Part shown: positions 3,141 through 59,039 of the stretch, piece by piece
Numbering within the stretch: position 1 is the first letter of the stretch
Layout of the letters: every line of letters starts with the position of its first letter
Source of the DNA: Escherichia coli
Lineage (GTDB): Bacteria; Pseudomonadota; Gammaproteobacteria; Enterobacterales; Enterobacteriaceae
Direction: 5' to 3' (one strand)
DNA: 64,000 nt
Assembly (NCBI RefSeq): GCF_044647545.1
Contig: NZ_CP172818.1
The notes under the pieces: generated by a model
Databases searched by the model: none
Seen by the model: the letters and a program-made list of their open reading frames with translations, nothing else
Told to the model about the DNA's origin: nothing
Translations under genes and position numbers: made by a program

Positions 3141-4346
3141 TTAGTGGCTGTAGGGGCGTTTCAAATTGCAGTCACGATTGAGTTCGACGCCGAAACCGGG
3201 TTTATCAAGCACTGATTTATGAATACGACCATTCACCGGAACCGGCTCATTAAGCAGAATCGGATCAAATTGCGGACGCATCGTTGAACAATCCGGGCTG
3301 GTCATCAGGAATTCACTGAATGGCGTATTGGTGAAGGTGATCACCGCATGGTGGGAGTAAACAGACGAACCGTGCGGCACCACCAGTTGCCCCCTGGATT
3401 TGGCGATTGCGGCAATTTCCACCAGCGTGGTTAAGCCACCGCACCAGCCAACATCCGGCTGCATGATGTCGATACCGGTTTCTGAAAGCGTACGAAAAGA
3501 TTGCAGTGTGCCGTGGTGCTCACCGCTGGTGACCATCATCCCCGCTGGTGCGTTGCGTTTCAGTTCGCGATAACCTTCATACTGCTGTGGCGGCAGGCAC
3601 TCTTCGATCCATTTCAGGTTATAGGGCGCGCAAGCGTGGGCCAGTTTGGTGGCATAGTTCACGTCCTGACTCATCCAGCAGTCGAGCATTAACCAGAAAT
3701 CCTCACCGCATTTTTCACGCATATCCGCGACCATAGCGGCATCTTTGCGGATCCCCGCATCGCCATCATGTGGCCCCCAGTGCGTCGGCATTTTGCCACC
3801 GATGAAGCCCATCTCTTTTGCCAGATCCGGACGCGCACCTGTGGCGTAGAACTGAATCTCATCACGAACTGCGCCGCCTAAAAGTTTATAAACCGGAAGC
3901 CCGACCACTTTGCCGAACAGATCCCACAGAGCCAGATCGACACAGGAAATCGTATTCATCACCAGGCCACCAGAGCCGGAGTAATACAGGGTGGCATTGA
4001 GCATTTGATCGTGGATCAGTTTGATATCACTGACACATTTACCCTCAATGAAACGGTTAAGGTGTTTTTCGACAATAAAACAGCCCATTTCACCGGCTGT
4101 CGAAACGGCGAATCCGGTCTGGCCGTTTTCTGCTTCGACTTCAACAATCAACGTGCCAAGAACGTTAATGCCAAATGACTGGCGTGACTGCTCGTAATCG
4201 CGGTATTTACTCATCGGGGTGGCAATATGATCGTCAATCCAGTGATTCGCCCCCTGGTCGTGATAATCACCACCGCCAGCGCCTTTTTCTGCTGTCGCAC
4301 CGCCAGTAAACCAGGCGCGAACCTGTTTGATTTTTGGTAGGGTCAT
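3141..4346 (-). CDS. rhmD: L-rhamnonate dehydratase (enolase superfamily)
   Basis: ORF 3141..4358 minus; start taken at ATG 4346 ([13 protein letters not shown]..., 401 aa) with GGAGA SD upstream; enolase-superfamily sequence recognised. Confidence 0.85.
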
Positions 4347-8743: not shown

Positions 8744-8760
8744 CTTAAGGTTAAGTTAAT
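8744..8760 (+). promoter_or_regulatory. PmrA (BasR) box-like direct repeat CTTAAG-GTTAA-GTTAAT upstream of arnB
   Basis: Hexamer direct repeat with 5-bp spacer read in sequence about 80 bp upstream of the arnB ATG; matches the known YTTAAK-N5-YTTAAK PmrA box architecture (established knowledge). Confidence 0.6.
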
Positions 8761-8840: not shown

Positions 8841-9998
8841 ATGGCGGAAGGAAAAGCAATGTCAGAATTTTTGCCTTTTTCGCGACCAGCAATGGGCGTG
8901 GAGGAACTCGCTGCAGTTAAAGAGGTTCTCGAATCCGGTTGGATCACAACCGGTCCGAAGAATCAGGCGCTTGAACAAGCCTTTTGCCAGTTGACGGGAA
9001 ATCAGCATGCCATCGCGGTCAGTTCAGCCACCGCCGGAATGCATATCACGCTAATGGCGTTGGAAATTGGCAAGGGCGATGAAGTGATTACGCCTTCCCT
9101 GACCTGGGTTTCAACCCTCAATATGATCTCCTTGTTGGGTGCAACGCCGGTAATGGTGGATGTCGACCGCGATACGCTGATGGTCACGCCTGAAGCGATC
9201 GAGTCAGCCATTACGCCACGCACTAAAGCCATCATTCCGGTGCATTATGCCGGTGCGCCAGCAGATATTGACGCCATTCGCGCCATTGGCGAACGTTACG
9301 GCATCGCAGTTATCGAAGATGCTGCCCATGCCGTCGGTACGTATTACAAAGGGCGACATATTGGCGCAAAAGGTACCGCTATTTTTTCATTTCATGCCAT
9401 TAAAAATATTACCTGTGCTGAAGGTGGCCTGATTGTAACTGATAATGAAAACCTTGCCCGCCAGCTACGGATGCTGAAATTTCACGGTCTGGGTGTCGAT
9501 GCCTATGACAGACAAACCTGGGGCCGTGCACCGCAAGCTGAAGTCTTAACACCGGGCTATAAGTACAATCTGACCGATATTAACGCCGCGATTGCCCTGA
9601 CACAGTTAGCAAAATTAGAGCACCTCAACACCCGTCGGCGCGAAATTGTCCAGCAATATCAGCAAGCACTGGCAGCTCTCCCCTTTCAGCCATTAAGCCT
9701 TCCCGCCTGGCCGCACGTTCACGCCTGGCATCTGTTTATTATTCGTGTCGATGAACAACGTTGTGGTATCAGTCGCGATGCGTTGATGGAAGCGTTAAAA
9801 GAAAGAGGTATTGGTACCGGGTTACATTTCCGCGCCGCTCACACACAAAAATATTATCGCGAGCGTTTTCCCACGCTGTCGTTACCGAATACCGAATGGA
9901 ATAGCGAACGCATCTGTTCGTTGCCGCTGTTCCCGGATATGACCACCGCCGATGCCGACCGCGTCATCACAGCCCTTCAGCAACTCGCAGGACAATAA
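8841..9998 (+). CDS. arnB: UDP-4-amino-4-deoxy-L-arabinose--oxoglutarate aminotransferase (DegT/ArnB family, PLP)
   Basis: ORF 8826..9998 (GTG at 8826); ATG at 8841 taken as start; ATG 8859 has a better SD (AAGGA) and is an alternative. Confidence 0.9.
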
Positions 9999-10969
<971 letters not shown>

Positions 10970-10970
<1 letters not shown>

Positions 10971-12952
10971 TGAAAACCGTCGTTTTTGCCTACCACGATA
11001 TGGGATGCCTCGGTATTGAAGCCCTGCTGGCTGCCGGTTACGAAATTAGCGCCATTTTTACCCATACTGATAATCCCGGTGAAAAAGCCTTTTATGGTTC
11101 GGTGGCTCGTCTGGCAGCGGAAAGAGGCATTCCGGTTTATGCGCCGGATGACGTTAACCATCCGCTGTGGGTGGAACGCATTGCCCAACTATCACCAGAT
11201 GTGATTTTCTCTTTTTATTATCGCCATCTTATTCACGACAAGATTTTGCAGCTCGCTCCTGCAGGCGCATTTAATCTGCATGGTTCACTGTTACCAAAAT
11301 ATCGTGGTCGCGCGCCGCTGAACTGGGTGCTGGTGAACGGTGAAACGGAAACTGGCGTGACATTGCACCGAATGGTGAAACGTGCCGATGCTGGGGCCAT
11401 TGTAGCCCAACTGCGCATTGCCATTGCGCCAGACGATATCGCCATTACGCTGCATCATAAGTTATGCCATGCCGCGCGACAGCTACTGGAGCAGACATTA
11501 CCCGCCATTAAAGACGGTAATATTCTGGAAATCGCCCAGTGCGAAAACGAAGCCACCTGTTTTGGTCGCAGAACGCCAGAAGACAGCTTCCTCGAGTGGC
11601 ACAAATCGGCAGCAGTATTGCATAACATGGTGCGTGCAGTCGCCGATCCGTGGCCGGGTGCCTTCAGCTATGTTGGTAATCAAAAATTTACCGTCTGGTC
11701 GTCACGCGTACATCCTCATACATCCGCAGCGCAGCCGGGAAGCGTGATTTCTGTTGCGCCGTTGCTGATTGCCTGTGGCGATGGCGCGCTGGAAATCGTC
11801 ACCGGACAGGCGGGCGACGGCATTACTATGCAGGGCTCACAATTAGCCCAGACGCTGGGGCTGGTGCAAGGTTCACGCTTGAATAGCCAGCCGGTCTGCG
11901 CCGCCCGACGCCGTACCCGGGTACTCATCCTCGGTGTGAATGGCTTTATTGGCAACCATCTGACAGAACGCCTGCTGCGCGAAGATCATTATGAAGTTTA
12001 CGGTCTGGATATTGGCAGCGATGCGATAAGCCGTTTTCTGAATCATCCGCATTTTCACTTTGTCGAAGGCGATATCAGTATTCATTCCGAATGGATTGAG
12101 TATCACGTCAAAAAATGTGATGTCGTCTTGCCTTTGGTGGCGATAGCCACGCCGATTGAATATACCCGCAACCCGCTGCGCGTATTTGAACTCGATTTCG
12201 AAGAGAATCTGCGCATTATCCGCTACTGCGTGAAGTACCGTAAGCGAATCATCTTCCCGTCGACTTCAGAAGTTTATGGGATGTGTAGCGATAAATACTT
12301 CGATGAGGACCATTCTAATTTAATCGTCGGCCCGGTGAATAAACCACGCTGGATTTATTCGGTGTCTAAACAATTACTTGATCGAGTGATCTGGGCCTAT
12401 GGCGAAAAAGAGGGGTTACAGTTCACCCTCTTCCGCCCGTTTAACTGGATGGGACCGCGACTGGATAACCTTAATGCAGCGCGAATCGGCAGCTCCCGCG
12501 CGATTACGCAACTCATTCTCAATCTGGTAGAAGGTTCACCAATTAAGCTGATTGATGGCGGAAAACAAAAACGCTGCTTTACTGATATTCGCGATGGTAT
12601 CGAGGCGTTATACCGCATTATCGAAAATGCGGGAAATCGCTGCGACGGCGAAATTATCAACATTGGCAATCCTGATAACGAAGCGAGCATTGAGGAACTG
12701 GGCCAGATGCTGCTGGCGAGCTTCGAAAAACATCCGCTGCGCCATCACTTCCCACCGTTTGCGGGCTTTCGTGTTGTCGAAAGTAGCAGCTACTACGGCA
12801 AAGGATATCAGGACGTAGAGCATCGTAAACCAAGCATCCGCAATGCCCGCCGCTGCCTGGACTGGGAGCCGAAAATTGATATGCAGGAAACCATCGACGA
12901 AACGCTGGATTTCTTCCTGCGCACCGTCGAGCTTACGGATAAACCATCATGA
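10970..12952 (+). CDS. arnA: bifunctional UDP-glucuronic acid decarboxylase / UDP-L-Ara4N formyltransferase
   Basis: ORF 10970..12952, 660 aa; N-terminal formyltransferase and C-terminal SDR domain with [10 protein letters not shown] Rossmann motif. Confidence 0.95.
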
Positions 12953-13839
12953 CAAAAGTAGGCTTACGCATTGATGTCGATACCTTTCGTGGCACCCGTG
13001 AAGGCGTGCCGCGTCTGCTGGAAATCTTGAGTAAGCATAATATTCAGGCCAGCATTTTTTTCAGCGTCGGCCCGGACAATATGGGCCGCCATCTCTGGCG
13101 ACTGGTGAAGCCACAGTTTTTGTGGAAGATGCTGCGCTCAAACGCGGCATCGCTTTATGGCTGGGATATTTTACTGGCAGGTACGGCCTGGCCAGGTAAA
13201 GAGATTGGTCATGCCAATGCCGATATCATTTGTGAAGCAGCTAAACATCACGAAGTCGGCCTGCACGCCTGGGATCACCATGCCTGGCAAGCCCATAGCG
13301 GTAACTGGGATCGGCAAACATTGGTCGACGATATTGCACGCGGCCTTCGCACTCTGGAAGAGATTATCGGTCAACCGGTAACCTGTTCTGCCGCTGCGGG
13401 CTGGCGTGCCGACCAGCAGGTGATCGAAGCAAAAGAAGCGTTCCATTTGCGCTACAACAGCGATTGTCGTGGGGCCATGCCGTTTCGGCCACTGCTCGAA
13501 TCAGGAAACCCTGGCACTGCGCAAATTCCGGTGACCTTACCCACCTGGGATGAAGTGATTGGTCGGGATGTGAAAGCAGAAGATTTTAACGGTTGGTTAC
13601 TCAACCGCATCCTGCGAGATAAAGGCACGCCGGTTTATACCATTCATGCCGAAGTTGAAGGCTGCGCTTATCAGCATAATTTTGTGGATCTCCTCAAACG
13701 CGCAGCTCAGGAAGGCGTGACATTTTGCCCTTTAAGCGAACTGTTATCAGGGATGTTGCCGCTCGGACAAGTTGTTCGCGGAAATATTGCCGGACGTGAA
13801 GGCTGGCTGGGTTGCCAACAAATTGCGGGTAGTCGCTGA
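12949..13839 (+). CDS. arnD: 4-deoxy-4-formamido-L-arabinose-phosphoundecaprenol deformylase (polysaccharide deacetylase family)
   Basis: ORF 12949..13839, 296 aa; 4-bp overlap with arnA. Confidence 0.9.
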
Positions 13840-15491
13840 TGAAATCGGTACGTTACCTTATCGGCCTCTTCGCGTTTATTGCCTGCTATTACCTGTTACC
13901 GATCAGCACGCGTCTGCTATGGCAACCCGATGAAACGCGTTATGCGGAAATCAGTCGAGAAATGCTGGCATCCGGCGACTGGATTGTGCCCCATTTGTTA
14001 GGGCTACGTTATTTCGAAAAACCCATTGCCGGATACTGGATTAACAGCATTGGGCAATGGCTATTTGGCGCGAATAACTTTGGTGTGCGGGCAGGCGTTA
14101 TCTTTGCGACCCTGTTAACTGCCGCGCTGGTGACCTGGTTTACTCTGCGCTTATGGCGCGATAAACGTCTGGCTCTACTCGCCGCAGTGATTTATCTCTC
14201 ATTGTTTATTGTCTATGCCATTGGCACTTATGCCGTGCTCGATCCGTTTATTGCCTTCTGGCTGGTGGCGGGAATGTGCAGCTTCTGGCTGGCAATGCAG
14301 GCACAGACGTGGAAAGGCAAAAGCGCGGGATTTTTACTGCTGGGAATCACCTGCGGCATGGGGGTGATGACCAAAGGTTTTCTCGCCCTTGCCGTGCCGG
14401 TATTAAGCGTGCTTCCATGGGTTGCAACGCAAAAACGCTGGAAAGATCTCTTTATTTACGGCTGGCTGGCGGTTATCAGTTGCGTACTGACGGTTCTCCC
14501 CTGGGGACTGGCGATAGCGCAGCGGGAGCCTGACTTCTGGCACTATTTTTTCTGGGTTGAGCATATTCAACGCTTTGCAATGGATGATGCTCAGCATAGA
14601 GCTCCGTTCTGGTACTACTTGCCGGTCATCATTGCCGGTAGCCTGCCGTGGCTGGGATTACTCCCCGGAGCACTGTACGCAGGCTGGAAAAACCGCAAGC
14701 ATTCCGCAACCGTCTATTTGTTGAGCTGGACGATAATGCCGCTGCTGTTTTTCTCCGTCGCTAAAGGCAAATTGCCCACCTATATTCTTTCCTGCTTTGC
14801 ACCTCTGGCAATGCTGATGGCGCATTACGCTTTGCTGGCAGCAAAAAATAATCCTCTGGCGCTGCGGATTAATGGCTGGATTAACATCGCTTTTGGTGTC
14901 ACTGGCATTATTGCCACATTTGTGGTCTCCCCATGGGGACCAATGAACACGCCAGTGTGGCAAACCTTCGAGAGCTATAAAGTCTTTTGTGCCTGGTCGA
15001 TTTTTTCGCTATGGGCATTTTTCGGCTGGTACACCTTAACAAACGTCGAAAAGACCTGGTCTTTTGCCGCGCTTTGCCCGCTGGGGCTGGCGTTGCTGGT
15101 AGGATTTTCAATTCCTGACAGAGTCATGGAAGGAAAACATCCGCAATTTTTTGTCGAGATGACACAAGAATCACTTCAGCCAAGCCGCTATATTCTTACT
15201 GATAGCGTCGGTGTTGCCGCAGGTCTGGCATGGAGCCTGCAACGCGATGACATCATCATGTATCGCCAGACAGGTGAGTTGAAATACGGCCTTAATTATC
15301 CGGATGCGAAAGGGAGATTTGTCAGCGGTGATGAGTTCGCAAACTGGCTTAATCAACATCGTCAGGAGGGGATTATTACACTCGTACTTTCGGTTGACCG
15401 CGATGAAGATATCAACAGTCTCGCCATTCCGCCCGCAGATGCCATCGATCGTCAGGAGCGTCTGGTGCTGATTCAGTATCGTCCCAAATGA
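13839..15491 (+). CDS. arnT: undecaprenyl phosphate-alpha-L-Ara4N transferase (GT83, integral membrane)
   Basis: ORF 13839..15491, 550 aa; polytopic membrane protein; start overlaps arnD stop. Confidence 0.9.
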
Positions 15492-15823
15492 TCTGGCTAA
15501 CATTAGTCTTTGCCAGCTTGCTTAGCGTTGCCGGGCAGTTGTGTCAGAAACAGGCAACCTGCTTTGTGGCGATAAACAAACGGCGCAAACATATCGTGCT
15601 GTGGCTGGGACTGGCGCTGGCTTGTCTTGGTCTTGCCATGGTGCTCTGGCTGCTGGTCTTGCAGAACGTACCGGTAGGCATTGCCTACCCGATGTTAAGT
15701 CTGAATTTTGTCTGGGTGACGCTGGCTGCAGTAAAACTGTGGCACGAACCGGTATCGCCGCGTCACTGGTGTGGAGTAGCGTTCATTATTGGCGGCATTG
15801 TGATCCTCGGGAGTACGGTGTAA
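15488..15823 (+). CDS. arnE: undecaprenyl phosphate-Ara4N flippase subunit ArnE (SMR-like)
   Basis: ORF 15488..15823, 111 aa, four predicted TM helices; overlaps arnT by 4 bp. Confidence 0.85.
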
Positions 15824-16209
15824 TGGGTCTGGTGTGGGGATTATTCAGCGTCATTATTGCCTCAGTTGCGCAATTAAGCCTCGGTTTTGCGGCGAGTCAT
15901 CTGCCGCCGATGACGCACTTATGGGATTTTATCGCGGCGCTGTTAGCTTTTGGCCTGGAGGCACGGATACTGTTGCTTGGGCTGCTGGGTTATCTGCTTT
16001 CCGTTTTTTGTTGGTATAAAACACTACATAAACTTGCACTAAGCAAAGCCTATGCCTTGCTCAGTATGAGTTATGTGCTGGTATGGATTGCTTCAATGGT
16101 ACTTCCCGGCTGGGAAGGAACTTTTTCGCTGAAAGCACTACTGGGAGTAGCCTGTATTATGAGCGGGTTGATGCTGATTTTCCTGCCCACCACAAAACAA
16201 CGTTACTGA
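15823..16209 (+). CDS. arnF: undecaprenyl phosphate-Ara4N flippase subunit ArnF
   Basis: Internal ATG of ORF 15541..16209 ([14 protein letters not shown]..., 128 aa); start overlaps arnE stop (TAATG). Confidence 0.85.
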
Positions 16210-16469
16210 GTTTTCCCAGCCGATTGACACTGCCGTTCCCACTCATCGGGGCTGTAGCTGCTTGCCGAGAGGACTTTCACCGTATGCAGCTTTTCACGAT
16301 TAATACAATAAAGCGCATTCTGCAAAGGCGAGAGTAAATCCCCCACTTTCACGGCGAAGTCACTCTTCACTTCGGCAATCATTTTTATCGTGCCACCAGC
16401 ATCACAAAGCTTAAGTACATGTCTGTTATCTTGTTTATCACAGCATGACTTTTTAACCAGCCATTCCAT
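16203..16469 (-). CDS. pmrD: signal transduction connector protein PmrD
   Basis: ORF 16203..16499 minus; recognised PmrD begins at in-frame ATG 16469 ([10 protein letters not shown]..., 88 aa); 3' end overlaps the arnF 3' end by 7 bp. Confidence 0.8.
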
Positions 16470-16578
16470 TGCACCACCCTGTTTGATAAGAATTTTCACA
16501 TTAATTTACAGATTAACAGATAAACCTATTATCAACGGCAATGGAATGGCAAAATTGCGAAGTGAAACTAATGATTTC

Positions 16579-17934
16579 TTAATCCTGGCGTTGCACCCAC
16601 TCTTTTAGCGCCCGACGTGAAATTTTAATACCGCCGTTTTTCAGTTCTGATGGTAACGTTAACCAACGCACCGGTTGCTGAAAACGAGCCAACTTGTCTT
16701 TCACCCATTCGTCAAGATCAACGGTTTGCTGGTCATACTCCACCACCGCTACTGGCCGATGACCAAACTCCTTGTCGGCAACGGGGACGATAAACACCTG
16801 CAAAACCGCAGGATGTGCAGCAATAACGCGCTCGACTTCTTCCGGCTGAATACCCTCACCGCCACTGAAGAATAGATTGTCTAAACGTCCGACAATGGTC
16901 AGCTTGCCATTATGCATCTCACCGCGATCGCGCGTGGCGTACCAGCCTTCGTCATTAACCAGTGGAACCCGTTGCCCGTTACGCCAGTAACCTTCTGCCA
17001 TACTGGCAGCCCGCAGCCACACTTCATCATTAACGATTTTCACTTCCCGACCCGGCAGCGGCGAACCAACGTCCGCCAGGCCGTCGGCTTCTTTCGCACA
17101 CACCGTGGAGGCAAACTCGGTCAGACCATAGCCGCAAAAGCAACGAATCCCCTGCTCGCGCGCCTGTTCCGTCAACTCGACCGGGATAGCCGCGCCGCCA
17201 AGTAAAACCGCTTTCAGGGAAACGGAACTACGGTTAACCAGCAAACGCCAGAGTTGTGTTGGCACCAGTGAAGCGTGAGTACAGCCTGCCAGCATTTGCT
17301 CCAGGGGCTGTTTATCACGTACCGTCATCCGCGCACCAGCGTATAACCAGCGCCACATAATCCCCTGACCGGAGACGTGAAACAGCGGTAAAGAGAGCAA
17401 CCAGTCATCGTGCTCGCCAAACGGTATCAGCGATAACACACCTTGCGCACTGGCAAGATGGGCCTGATAAGTATGAACAGCGGCTTTCGGCAAACCGGTA
17501 GAGCCGGAGGTCAACGTCATTGAGCACAGACGCGTCGGCTGCCACGCAGCGGCATGTGCGCCTTCAACCAGCTGAATGTGCAGCGACGTTAACGCCGGAA
17601 ACGTGTTTTCCCCATCCGGCACCAGCGCAAATTGCAGCGTCAGATTGGGCAGCAATTCCTCAAGCAACGGTTGCGGCAGTTGAGGGTTCACGGGCAGCAC
17701 CCGCGCCCCGCATTGCAGTAACGCCAGCCAGGCGAGCAGCGTTTGCGGCGTATTCCACGCCCGCAACATCACGCCGCTGCCCTCAACAACGCCCTGTGCC
17801 ACAAAGCCGGAGGCTAATTCATCGACGCGAGCACAAAGCTCGCGCCAGTTAAGTTGCTCGTCATTAAGACGTAAGGCGATGGCTTCTCCCCGCACTTGCC
17901 GCCAGTGACGCCACGGCCAGTCAGAGAAGATCAT
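16579..17934 (-). CDS. menE: o-succinylbenzoate--CoA ligase
   Basis: ORF 16579..17934 minus, 451 aa; adenylate-forming enzyme motifs ([10 protein letters not shown]). Confidence 0.9.
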
Positions 17935-18893
17935 AACAGCCGCTCCAGTGCATCAACTTCCACTAACGGTAGCGGGCTACCCGGCCAGCGACGAACCTGC
18001 TGCGCCTGCATCAGATCCAGCGTGTCCAGTCCCGGAATGGTGTCTGGCGTTAACCAGGCAGCAATCCGCGCCAGTTGCGTTAGACCTAAGCTCGACTCAA
18101 TGGAAGAACTGATCACCGCCGTCAGCCCCAGCGCGTGCGCCGCCTGCACCTGCTCACGTACTTTCTCCAGGCTACCCGTGAGCGTGGGTTTGATAACTAC
18201 CGCGCGCACGCCCTGTTCAGCGACAAAGGCAAAATCCGGCTCGCGCAGGCTTTCATCCCAAGCAATGGCAATGCCGGTTTCACGGGTAAACGCTCGCGAA
18301 TCATCGCGGGTTTTACACGGCTCTTCGAGAAAAGCAATGCGGTGGCGATAATCCGGGTTAACGTATTTGGCAAACTGCTGGCCTTTCAGCGGCGTCCAGG
18401 CGCGATTCGCGTCAAGACGCAAATGCAGATCAGGAACCGCCTCCAGCAACAGATTGACCACCATGCCGTCGCGCACGGCTTCGTACAATCCCACTTTGAC
18501 CTTCGCCACTTTCTCGCCCGGCATATCGGCAAGTTTGAGGATCAGATCGTCAGGATCGCCATTACACAGTGGTGCCGCACGGTAATTGGCCGCCTGCGGG
18601 AGCGTATCTGCCAGCTCCGCCAATGCACAGCTTACGCCAAAGGCCACGGAAGGCATCTGCGGTAATTCGCAATCGCCTGCCAGCCAGTTATTTACCCAGG
18701 CAAGCAGCACGCTTTGCGCCTCTTCCCAGGTTTCCTGGCTGAAGCCCGGCAGTGGGGAGATCTCCCCCCACCCTTCGCGCTCGCCCTCACGCAGGCAAAC
18801 GTACAGCCCGTCGCGGGTTTTTAACCGCCTGTCGCGCAGAACCACCCCCGCGTCCATGGGGATCTGCCAGCGGTATACCTGCGCGCTACGCAT
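17931..18893 (-). CDS. menC: o-succinylbenzoate synthase (enolase superfamily)
   Basis: ORF 17931..18893 minus, 320 aa; 4-bp overlap with menE. Confidence 0.9.
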
Positions 18894-59004: not shown

Positions 59005-59012
59005 AAATGTTA

Positions 59013-59039
59013 AGAGCCGCAATTGCGGCTCTTTTTTTC
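59013..59039. terminator. bidirectional terminator shared by convergent yfcC and yfcD (AGAGCCGC-aatt-GCGGCTCT followed by T7)
   Basis: Perfect 8-bp stem, 4-nt loop and T-run read directly. Confidence 0.8.

Follow-up and report, generated by a model that had tools for sequence, protein, structure and literature searches.

Gene organization at the arnF-pmrD junction

The window analysed here, a stretch of 64,000 nucleotides of Escherichia coli DNA (assembly GCF_044647545.1, contig NZ_CP172818.1), carries the genes ais, arnBCADTEF, pmrD and menECBHDF in this order according to RefSeq, with arnBCADTEF on the plus strand and both pmrD and the men genes on the minus strand. The seven-gene arnBCADTEF operon (8859..16209, +), placed by the open reading frame list and the RefSeq annotation of an identical strain, runs from the arnB start at 8859 to the arnF stop, and its genes are tightly packed, with overlaps of 1 to 4 nt at most internal junctions. 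The last of them, arnF (15823..16209, +), comprises 128 codons plus TGA and matched the NCBIfam equivalog NF002816 (E=8e-41); its start lies at 15823, not 15824, with an ATG that overlaps the arnE stop in TAATG. Facing arnF from the opposite strand is pmrD (16203..16469, -), 88 codons plus TAA, encoding the connector that links PhoP/PhoQ to PmrA/PmrB. Both Pfam PF11183 (E=1e-44) and the NCBIfam equivalog NF011994 (E=1e-49) matched its product, which aligned end to end with the 88-residue E. coli PmrD chain (PDB 2JSO/4HN7), both sequences ending in ...AGKTQ. The profile matches and the structural-chain alignment bear out the identities that an earlier sequence-only reading of this DNA had assigned to the two genes.

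Upstream of pmrD, a 109-bp intergenic region that holds the pmrD promoter (16470..16578, -) separates it from menE (16579..17934, -; open reading frame list and RefSeq), the last of the men genes. The direction of pmrD is shared by the whole of menFDHBCE, and a consensus scan of the 109-bp gap detected no terminator-like site. Because menE is co-directional with pmrD, transcripts of the men genes can continue across pmrD and on in the direction of arnF. The gap also contains a PhoP-box-like repeat, CGTTGATAATAGGTTTA, with two mismatches. On the other side of the junction, upstream of arnB, a direct repeat resembling the PmrA (BasR) box, CTTAAGGTTAAGTTAAT (8744..8760, +; one mismatch to YTTAAK-N5-YTTAAK), identifies the promoter from which any arn read-through into pmrD would originate.

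The 3' ends of arnF (+) and pmrD (-) have seven base pairs in common, TTACTGA at 16203..16209. Read directly, the sequence at 16200..16209 is a-c-g-T-T-A-c-T-G-A, which gives the codons (CGT) TAC TGA on the plus strand and (ACT) CAG TAA on the minus strand. The arnF frame ends in ...LPTTKQRY* with its TGA at 16207..16209, and the pmrD frame ends in ...QSAGKTQ* with a TAA that is written tta at 16203..16205; since each stop is the first in its frame, the overlap is independent of start-codon choice. An identical 7-bp overlap is annotated by RefSeq in strain FDAARGOS_497, whose sequence is 100% identical over the 1.6 kb around the junction, and in K-12 MG1655, where arnF occupies 2372892..2373278 and pmrD 2373272..2373538. 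The claim that the two stops overlap and that the genes share 7 bp is upheld by this direct reading and by RefSeq for both this strain and K-12; the overlap is already part of the reference annotation. Of 5426 complete E. coli genomes, 5407 carry these 1.6 kb without interruption.

Search for an intrinsic terminator between the converging genes

The sequence-only reading had further proposed that neither a hairpin nor a U-tract separates the two genes, and in substance our searches agree. A consensus terminator scan of 13500..18500 returned eight weak matches, compared with 5.8+-2.6 in shuffled sequence, and none of them was convincing at the junction. On each strand we also searched the 120 nt that follow either stop for single hairpins backed by a T-rich tail, kept the most stable, and judged these candidates against 300 segments of 160 nt drawn at random from the window; what emerged was indistinguishable from that random background. 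In the pmrD direction, a weak hairpin lies across the pmrD stop (16198..16226, -; dG -6.7 kcal/mol) and is followed by UUUUGUGGU (tail TTTTGTGGT). We rejected it as a terminator: 56% of random segments were equal or better, its stem differs in sequence in K-12, and no hairpin with a dG of -8 kcal/mol or better was found at the corresponding position there. In the arn direction, a GCTGC...GCAGC hairpin (16257..16290, +; dG -10.6 kcal/mol), followed by UUUUCACGA (tail TTTTCACGA), sits 48 to 81 nt past the arnF stop within antisense pmrD. This candidate was likewise rejected, as it was matched by 26% of random segments and the search did not recover it from K-12, E. albertii, Citrobacter or S. 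diarizonae sequences. An Rfam search of 15000..17500 at E<=1 returned no RNA family, and folding of the whole region revealed no unusual stability for the minus strand (z -0.05) and only marginal stability for the plus strand (z -1.74).

Compared with its surroundings, the arnF/pmrD junction is locally the odd one out. The window contains eight convergent junctions, and coding sequences overlap at this one only; the other seven have spacers of 33 to 70 bp, six of which hold palindromes of -14 to -23 kcal/mol. Among these are the textbook bidirectional terminator of yfcC/yfcD (59012..59033) and a 32-nt perfect palindrome at the elaD/yfbK junction. Bidirectional intrinsic terminators such as that of yfcC/yfcD share with arnF/pmrD the tail-to-tail geometry and the task of stopping two converging polymerases, but do so with a spacer that carries a GC-rich palindrome flanked by A/T runs, and arnF/pmrD, having no spacer between its stops, has neither. 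A similar difference separates the locus from programmed polymerase collisions, for which the available text of bioRxiv 10.1101/2022.10.23.513370 names a stem-loop as the requirement for defined positions; such a stem-loop is absent at arnF/pmrD. The locus cleanly illustrates a common situation, in which two convergent genes overlap at their stops and lack a hairpin terminator, and it could be a convenient test case for termination by Rho and polymerase collision at junctions of this kind.

Flush arn operon ends across enterobacterial genera

To place the overlap in a comparative frame, we aligned PmrD and retrieved 18 loci from species-representative genomes, adding S. enterica by exact-protein look-up. 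The spacing between arnF and pmrD was -7 bp in K-12, Escherichia sp. MOD1-EC7003 and E. albertii, the three further Escherichia loci of full length that were compared. It was -6 bp in two Salmonella loci (S. enterica and S. diarizonae), where the shared sequence is TCATGA, and 0 to +9 bp in 11 Citrobacter loci. In every locus examined in which pmrD lies between menE and arnF, the stops were essentially in contact. The ArnF tail consists of ...FLP followed by three to six variable residues and that of PmrD is variable after the DEWERL region. What the shared codons specify is, for each protein, a short C-terminal tail that varies. The junction resembles the overlaps attributed to stop-codon drift (PMC4161906): it involves few bases in a tail-to-tail arrangement, takes in only the stops and last sense codons, and has tails on both sides that vary between genera; the sequence evidence for arnF/pmrD offers no point of difference.

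Nearly the same spacing was found where another gene faces arnF. In Pseudescherichia, where pmrD is absent, the convergent neighbour is menE, at +7 bp; in K. pneumoniae it is a gene for an AI-2E family transporter, at -4 bp; and in K. aerogenes it is psf-1 (holo-ACP synthase), at -32 bp. A strong hairpin with a T-rich tail was found at none of these three arnF junctions. The best 120 matches of the ArnF protein search came only from Escherichia, Citrobacter and Salmonella relatives, and the Klebsiella contexts were taken from chromosomes filed in a plasmid collection. Tight spacing with unrelated neighbours argues that the flush, terminator-less end is a trait of the arn 3' end rather than of a regulator-target pair, and its independence of the neighbour weakens the case for a layout that serves to link arn with pmrD. 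We infer that the flush end may arise because the ArnF tail tolerates change: after a rearrangement, the open reading frame would run on to the next stop, which would soon be met antisense to the convergent gene. What is new here, and a modest addition, is that the arn operon end is flush, terminator-less and neighbour-independent across enterobacterial genera.

Overlap of this kind is not rare among convergent genes in general. Huvet & Stumpf (2014, PMC4161906) counted 75 convergent overlapping gene pairs in E. coli K-12, and overlap of coding sequences is a minority state of convergent pairs but not an exceptional one. The base rate is very roughly 12-20%, depending on whether these 75 overlaps are set against about 600 convergent pairs, by our own estimate, or against the 370 convergent operon junctions of Conway et al. 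Seen against that base rate, near-zero spacing of arnF with four different neighbours is unusual, and could mean that the lack of an arn terminator has been selected, for which a purely neutral view offers no explanation.

Overlapping transcripts and their probable termination

It had also been claimed that transcripts of the two units must read antisense into each other. Some overlap is indeed unavoidable: each mRNA must hold its own stop codon, which makes the transcripts complementary over at least 7 nt and realistically over more, and termination before the overlap would give non-stop messages and is impossible for functional mRNAs. As a statement about longer read-through, however, the word "must" goes too far, as it ignores factor-dependent termination, for which the C-rich antisense RNA described below is suited.

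The idea of overlapping arnF and pmrD transcripts is already in print at catalogue level. In the available text of ExcludonFinder (2025, PMC12288877), arnF-pmrD is among 165 convergent excludons of MG1655, with transcript overlap in at least 50% of 58 MG1655 RNA-seq transcriptomes, and the two genes are pointed out as functionally related; the pair is not named in the main text among the 20 excludons with inverse behaviour. As two convergent neighbours with a 7-bp overlap of coding sequence and overlapping transcripts (PMC12288877), arnF and pmrD fall within the convergent-excludon class, and they share with its other members (PMC12288877, PMC4161252) the two convergent units with complementary 3' ends. 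They are unlike the class in its regulatory meaning, since what is reported for arnF-pmrD is overlap of coverage only, whereas the concept takes its regulatory sense from transcriptional interference, dependence on RNase III and expression of one partner to the exclusion of the other. With coding sequences that overlap, expression of both genes is almost enough to produce an excludon call. According to Conway et al. (2014, PMC4161252), 276 of 370 convergent E. coli operons (~75%) have complementary 3' ends, with a mean of 286 nt. Convergent E. coli operons thus normally overlap in their transcripts, and such overlap alone does not imply regulation.

Rho favours C-rich, G-poor RNA and suppresses antisense transcription in E. 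coli. Untranslated arn read-through RNA contains such a C-rich, G-poor stretch (16274..16534, +), a candidate Rho loading region. It covers positions +65 to +325 counted from the arnF stop and is antisense both to pmrD and to the pmrD promoter. Windows of 78 nt within it have C/G ratios of 1.5-2.7, relative to a background in the window with a 95th percentile of 1.71 and a 99th percentile of 2.28, and antisense pmrD ranks first in C/G among the 60 coding sequences of the window. In the opposite direction, minus-strand RNA from +13 to +156 past the pmrD stop has a C/G of 1.5-1.7 over about 150 nt. Judged by composition only, the locus offers what a rut-like site is expected to have, untranslated C-rich, G-poor RNA over about 80 nt or more past the stop. 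Between species, the C/G of antisense pmrD was 1.18-1.65 where pmrD is adjacent to arn versus 0.97-1.33 where it is not, with no clear separation of the two groups. The composition signal, as read from these sequences, is one of compatibility with Rho and not proof, and across species it is not sharply specific. Even so, C-rich, G-poor antisense RNA would make Rho, perhaps aided by polymerase collisions, the likeliest end of read-through. The part of the Term-seq tables of PMC7815308 that was available has no entry for pmrD, arnF or menE and no 3' end at K-12 2,373,0xx-2,373,5xx; as we assume that arn and pmrD were probably poorly expressed in those growth conditions, the tables are uninformative on this point.

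Taking these lines of evidence together, we conclude that the arnF-pmrD junction is probably an ordinary compact tail-to-tail junction, typical of the end of the arn operon and resolved mainly by Rho and polymerase collisions. The seven-gene arn operon, which has no 3' intergenic region, would run straight into convergent pmrD, itself the last gene of a co-directional men-pmrD block. Polymerases arriving from each side would continue into the gene opposite for anything from tens of nucleotides to a few hundred, leaving complementary 3' ends, and their untranslated, C-rich antisense extensions would be ended mainly by Rho rather than by a hairpin terminator, with a contribution from head-on polymerase collisions whenever transcription arrives from both directions. 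If arn read-through affected pmrD, or men/pmrD read-through affected arnEF, this would then be a side-effect of the layout, expected to be modest, and not a dedicated feedback device.

Read-through as a proposed feedback on pmrD

Lipid A modification and resistance to polymyxin/colistin are under the control of the PhoP-PmrD-PmrA circuit. Were pmrD throttled by arn read-through, the junction would add an extra cis-acting layer to this circuit, and such a brake could help explain differences between strains and species in the induction of resistance at low Mg2+. Under this alternative, an excludon-type negative feedback, PmrA-activated arn transcription would read over the 267-bp pmrD and its promoter, about 300 bp away, and lower PmrD by collision, by promoter occlusion or through cutting of double-stranded RNA by RNase III, closing a loop onto the activator of PmrA itself. 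The geometry would permit it: no terminator lies between arnF and pmrD, no part of pmrD or its promoter is more than about 330 nt away from the arnF stop, and the abutment is kept in the three genera in which pmrD is the neighbour. PMC12288877 both catalogues the pair as an excludon and flags it as functionally related. The same geometry needs no such function, however, given that the spacing is repeated with the unrelated neighbours menE, AI-2E and psf-1. About three-quarters of convergent operons overlap with no known function (PMC4161252), and antisense pmrD is Rho-friendly in composition. We regard such feedback as unlikely.

Mutation of the PmrA site is said to have abolished the repression of pmrD in Salmonella, in work by Kato and colleagues from 2003; if so, there is little room for a large effect of read-through in that genus. 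The feedback outcome itself is the same in Salmonella as that proposed for arn read-through, in that active PmrA lowers PmrD and a negative loop is closed, but the published mechanism differs, as the available texts of PMC3140997 and PMC2565834 describe an action of PmrA-P on pmrD transcription and credit it to Kato, Latifi & Groisman (2003). That attribution weighs against read-through, as does the description of the PmrA-to-pmrD loop as absent in E. coli, given in the same available texts (PMC3140997, and together with K. pneumoniae in both PMC3140997 and PMC2565834). K. pneumoniae would at first sight favour read-through, since its pmrD is unrepressed by PmrA and has no PmrA box in its promoter (PMC2565834, in the part available), and it also has an AI-2E gene, not pmrD, facing arnF. 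With pmrD away from arnF and the PmrA box missing, though, the promoter and read-through models predict the same result in this species.

Read-through could also be favoured by the promoter of pmrD in E. coli. A scan of the menE-pmrD gap for the PmrA box (YTTAAK-N5-YTTAAK) found none with three mismatches or fewer, the best having four, and this gap in regulation would leave room for read-through as the only arn-linked brake on pmrD in E. coli; the Salmonella pmrD promoter also scores four, so the scan lacks power. We think it very improbable that the terminator-less junction is a cis-acting brake in E. coli and its relatives, in which arn transcription over pmrD and its PhoP-dependent promoter replaces the PmrA site of Salmonella, or, in a broader form, that enterobacterial arn operons are kept terminator-less to make their 3' ends interfere with any gene that converges on them.

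Hairpins embedded in the opposite coding sequences

A further alternative holds that each transcript is stopped by an intrinsic terminator, a hairpin with a U-rich tail, embedded in the opposite coding sequence, which would leave a defined overlap of about 350 nt. In the pmrD direction, the candidate is a 13-bp hairpin in the pmrD/men read-through RNA (16037..16066, -; dG -17.5 to -19.2 kcal/mol in this strain), 137 to 166 nt past the pmrD stop and antisense to the arnF codons for an invariant ArnF peptide. In the arn direction, it is a CGAAGT-N8-ACTTCG hairpin (16355..16374, +) with a T5 run at 16382..16386. Adding an offset of 2,357,069 to the window positions puts the two candidates at about 2,373,106-2,373,135 (-) and 2,373,424-2,373,455 (+) of K-12. 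Both hairpins recur about 160 to 190 nt past their respective stops in several species. The one at 16037..16066 is the stronger, with a dG that places it beyond the 5th percentile reached by random segments and with pairing in 86.4% of cells across 17 sequences; its stem is more stable on the pmrD-direction strand, where G-U pairs take the place of A-C mismatches. Third-codon positions in this stem pair with each other, so that covariation would in principle be visible.

Closer comparison weighs against both candidates. At the variable sites of 16037..16066, shuffles paired in 85.1+-0.8% of cells and 48 of 500 reached the observed value, while the covariation score was reached by 47 of 500; six of the 13 pairs never vary and are fixed by the invariant ArnF peptide, and the U-rich tail adjoins the stem in E. 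coli only. We accordingly rejected 16037..16066 as a selected RNA structure, its compensatory pairing not exceeding that of shuffles. The arn-direction hairpin is weaker in this strain and unconserved outside Escherichia, and the KMI codons of PmrD, which are invariant, account for its T-run. The available Term-seq tables of PMC7815308 contain no 3' ends at either embedded hairpin, again with the assumption that arn and pmrD were probably poorly expressed there. Embedded terminators at these two sites are, in our estimation, very unlikely. The hairpin at 16037..16066 is most likely, from the comparison of sequences, a by-product of a palindromic coding motif in arnF, and it may incidentally pause or stabilise transcripts.

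Possible interference in the reverse direction

In the last alternative, arnF, arnE and arnT would be invaded from the opposite strand by constitutive men read-through and by pmrD transcription induced through PhoP, which would trim expression of the flippase genes at the distal end of the arn operon. It would draw on the co-direction of pmrD with menFDHBCE, on a scan that detected no terminator-like site either in the menE-pmrD gap or past the end of pmrD, and on a pmrD read-through RNA that is only moderately C-rich over its first ~150 nt (C/G 1.5-1.7). Ribosomes coupled to transcription on arnF give no protection from head-on polymerases. The stable hairpin and C-rich stretches in antisense arnF could, however, end such transcripts early, and we hold this alternative to be very unlikely.

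Spacing at the 3' end of the arn operon

Across the loci compared, the gene convergent on arnF lay flush with the arnF end regardless of which gene it was (four different neighbours compared). In Pseudescherichia, where pmrD is absent, arnF is separated by a gap of 7 bp from menE (retrieved locus L026, 2885..2897), in Klebsiella pneumoniae it overlaps an AI-2E transporter gene by 4 bp (L028, 2878..2881), and in Klebsiella aerogenes it overlaps psf-1 by 32 bp (L029, 5353..5384), while arnF/pmrD junctions in the remaining loci range from a 7-bp overlap, as at 16203..16209 of the window, to a 9-bp gap. Near-zero spacing at four different neighbours looks like more than would be expected from a rough base rate of 12 to 20%. 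The pattern suggests a systematic absence of a 3' spacer or terminator from the arn operon. Clean examples of the usual appearance of a convergent junction are found elsewhere in the window: the bidirectional terminator of yfcC/yfcD (59012..59033), where AAGAGCCGCAATTGCGGCTCTT has a T-rich tail after it on each strand, and the perfect 32-nt palindrome between elaD and yfbK (26873..26904).

The arnF/pmrD junction itself is flanked by the arms, roughly 100 bp apart, of a 10-bp inverted repeat (CGGCTGGGAA at 16106..16115 and TTCCCAGCCG at 16213..16222). These arms are paired in the minimum-energy fold of the RNA read in the pmrD direction, but overall that fold is not unusually stable (z-score -0.05).

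Table 1 of PMC12288877, the catalogue that holds arnF-pmrD, also enters pmrR-basS as a convergent excludon, a second pair with overlapping transcripts inside the PmrA/PmrB (BasR/BasS) circuit.

Variation of the segment within E. coli

The arnE-arnF-pmrD-menE segment (window 15400..17000) was only 90 to 95% identical in 3,446 of 5,419 E. coli genomes; by general expectation, this level seems low for core genes of the species. Of the 88 residues of PmrD, 5 differ between the window and K-12, and most of these lie in the C-terminal tail, which fits the hypervariability of E. coli pmrD reportedly described by Winfield & Groisman in 2004. A contiguous copy of the region was missing from 19 of the 5,426 E. 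coli genomes in a genome search. Strain 720632 (NZ_CP025842.1) matches only query bases 1133-1601, on the menE side and beginning within the pmrD promoter, and seems to lack both pmrD and arnF.

Displaced, truncated, and doubtful loci

The location of pmrD is not confined to the arnF side and can be elsewhere. In Intestinirhabdus alba (L018, around 3256..3320), pmrD follows menE, and the sequence downstream of it is a T-rich noncoding flank without arnF; Klebsiella-type PmrD homologues (P0079 and P0081; loci L021 and L023) stand in other contexts, such as upstream of amn. SCPM-O-B-8794, a species representative labelled "E. coli" (L005, 2971..4303), keeps pmrD, but its arnF is reduced to the final ~22 codons, directly followed by ais, and the entire arnBCADTE region appears to have been deleted. 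Its pmrD frame extends five codons past the 3' end of the pmrD match to a TAG stop, and the protein ends in ...KSANNVVLQ.

The AI-2E transporter gene that converges on arnF is whole in K. pneumoniae strain C17KP0052 (L028), but in strain 176 (L027, 6378..7604) an in-frame stop divides it into two ORFs, 292 and 114 codons long. A short contig of a "Citrobacter sp." MAG (DXKH01000101.1, 3.1 kb; L003) is 100% identical to the E. coli menE-pmrD-arnF segment of the window; the same MAG carries its own Citrobacter-type locus (L009), and the E. coli-identical contig is probably bin contamination. In the type-strain assembly of Salmonella enterica subsp. arizonae (L013), arnF is frameshifted close to its 3' end by a 7- to 8-bp tandem duplication (tgtgcat), which lies on the arnF side of the pmrD stop at a distance of ~40 to 60 bp; either arnF is a pseudogene there or the sequence contains an error.
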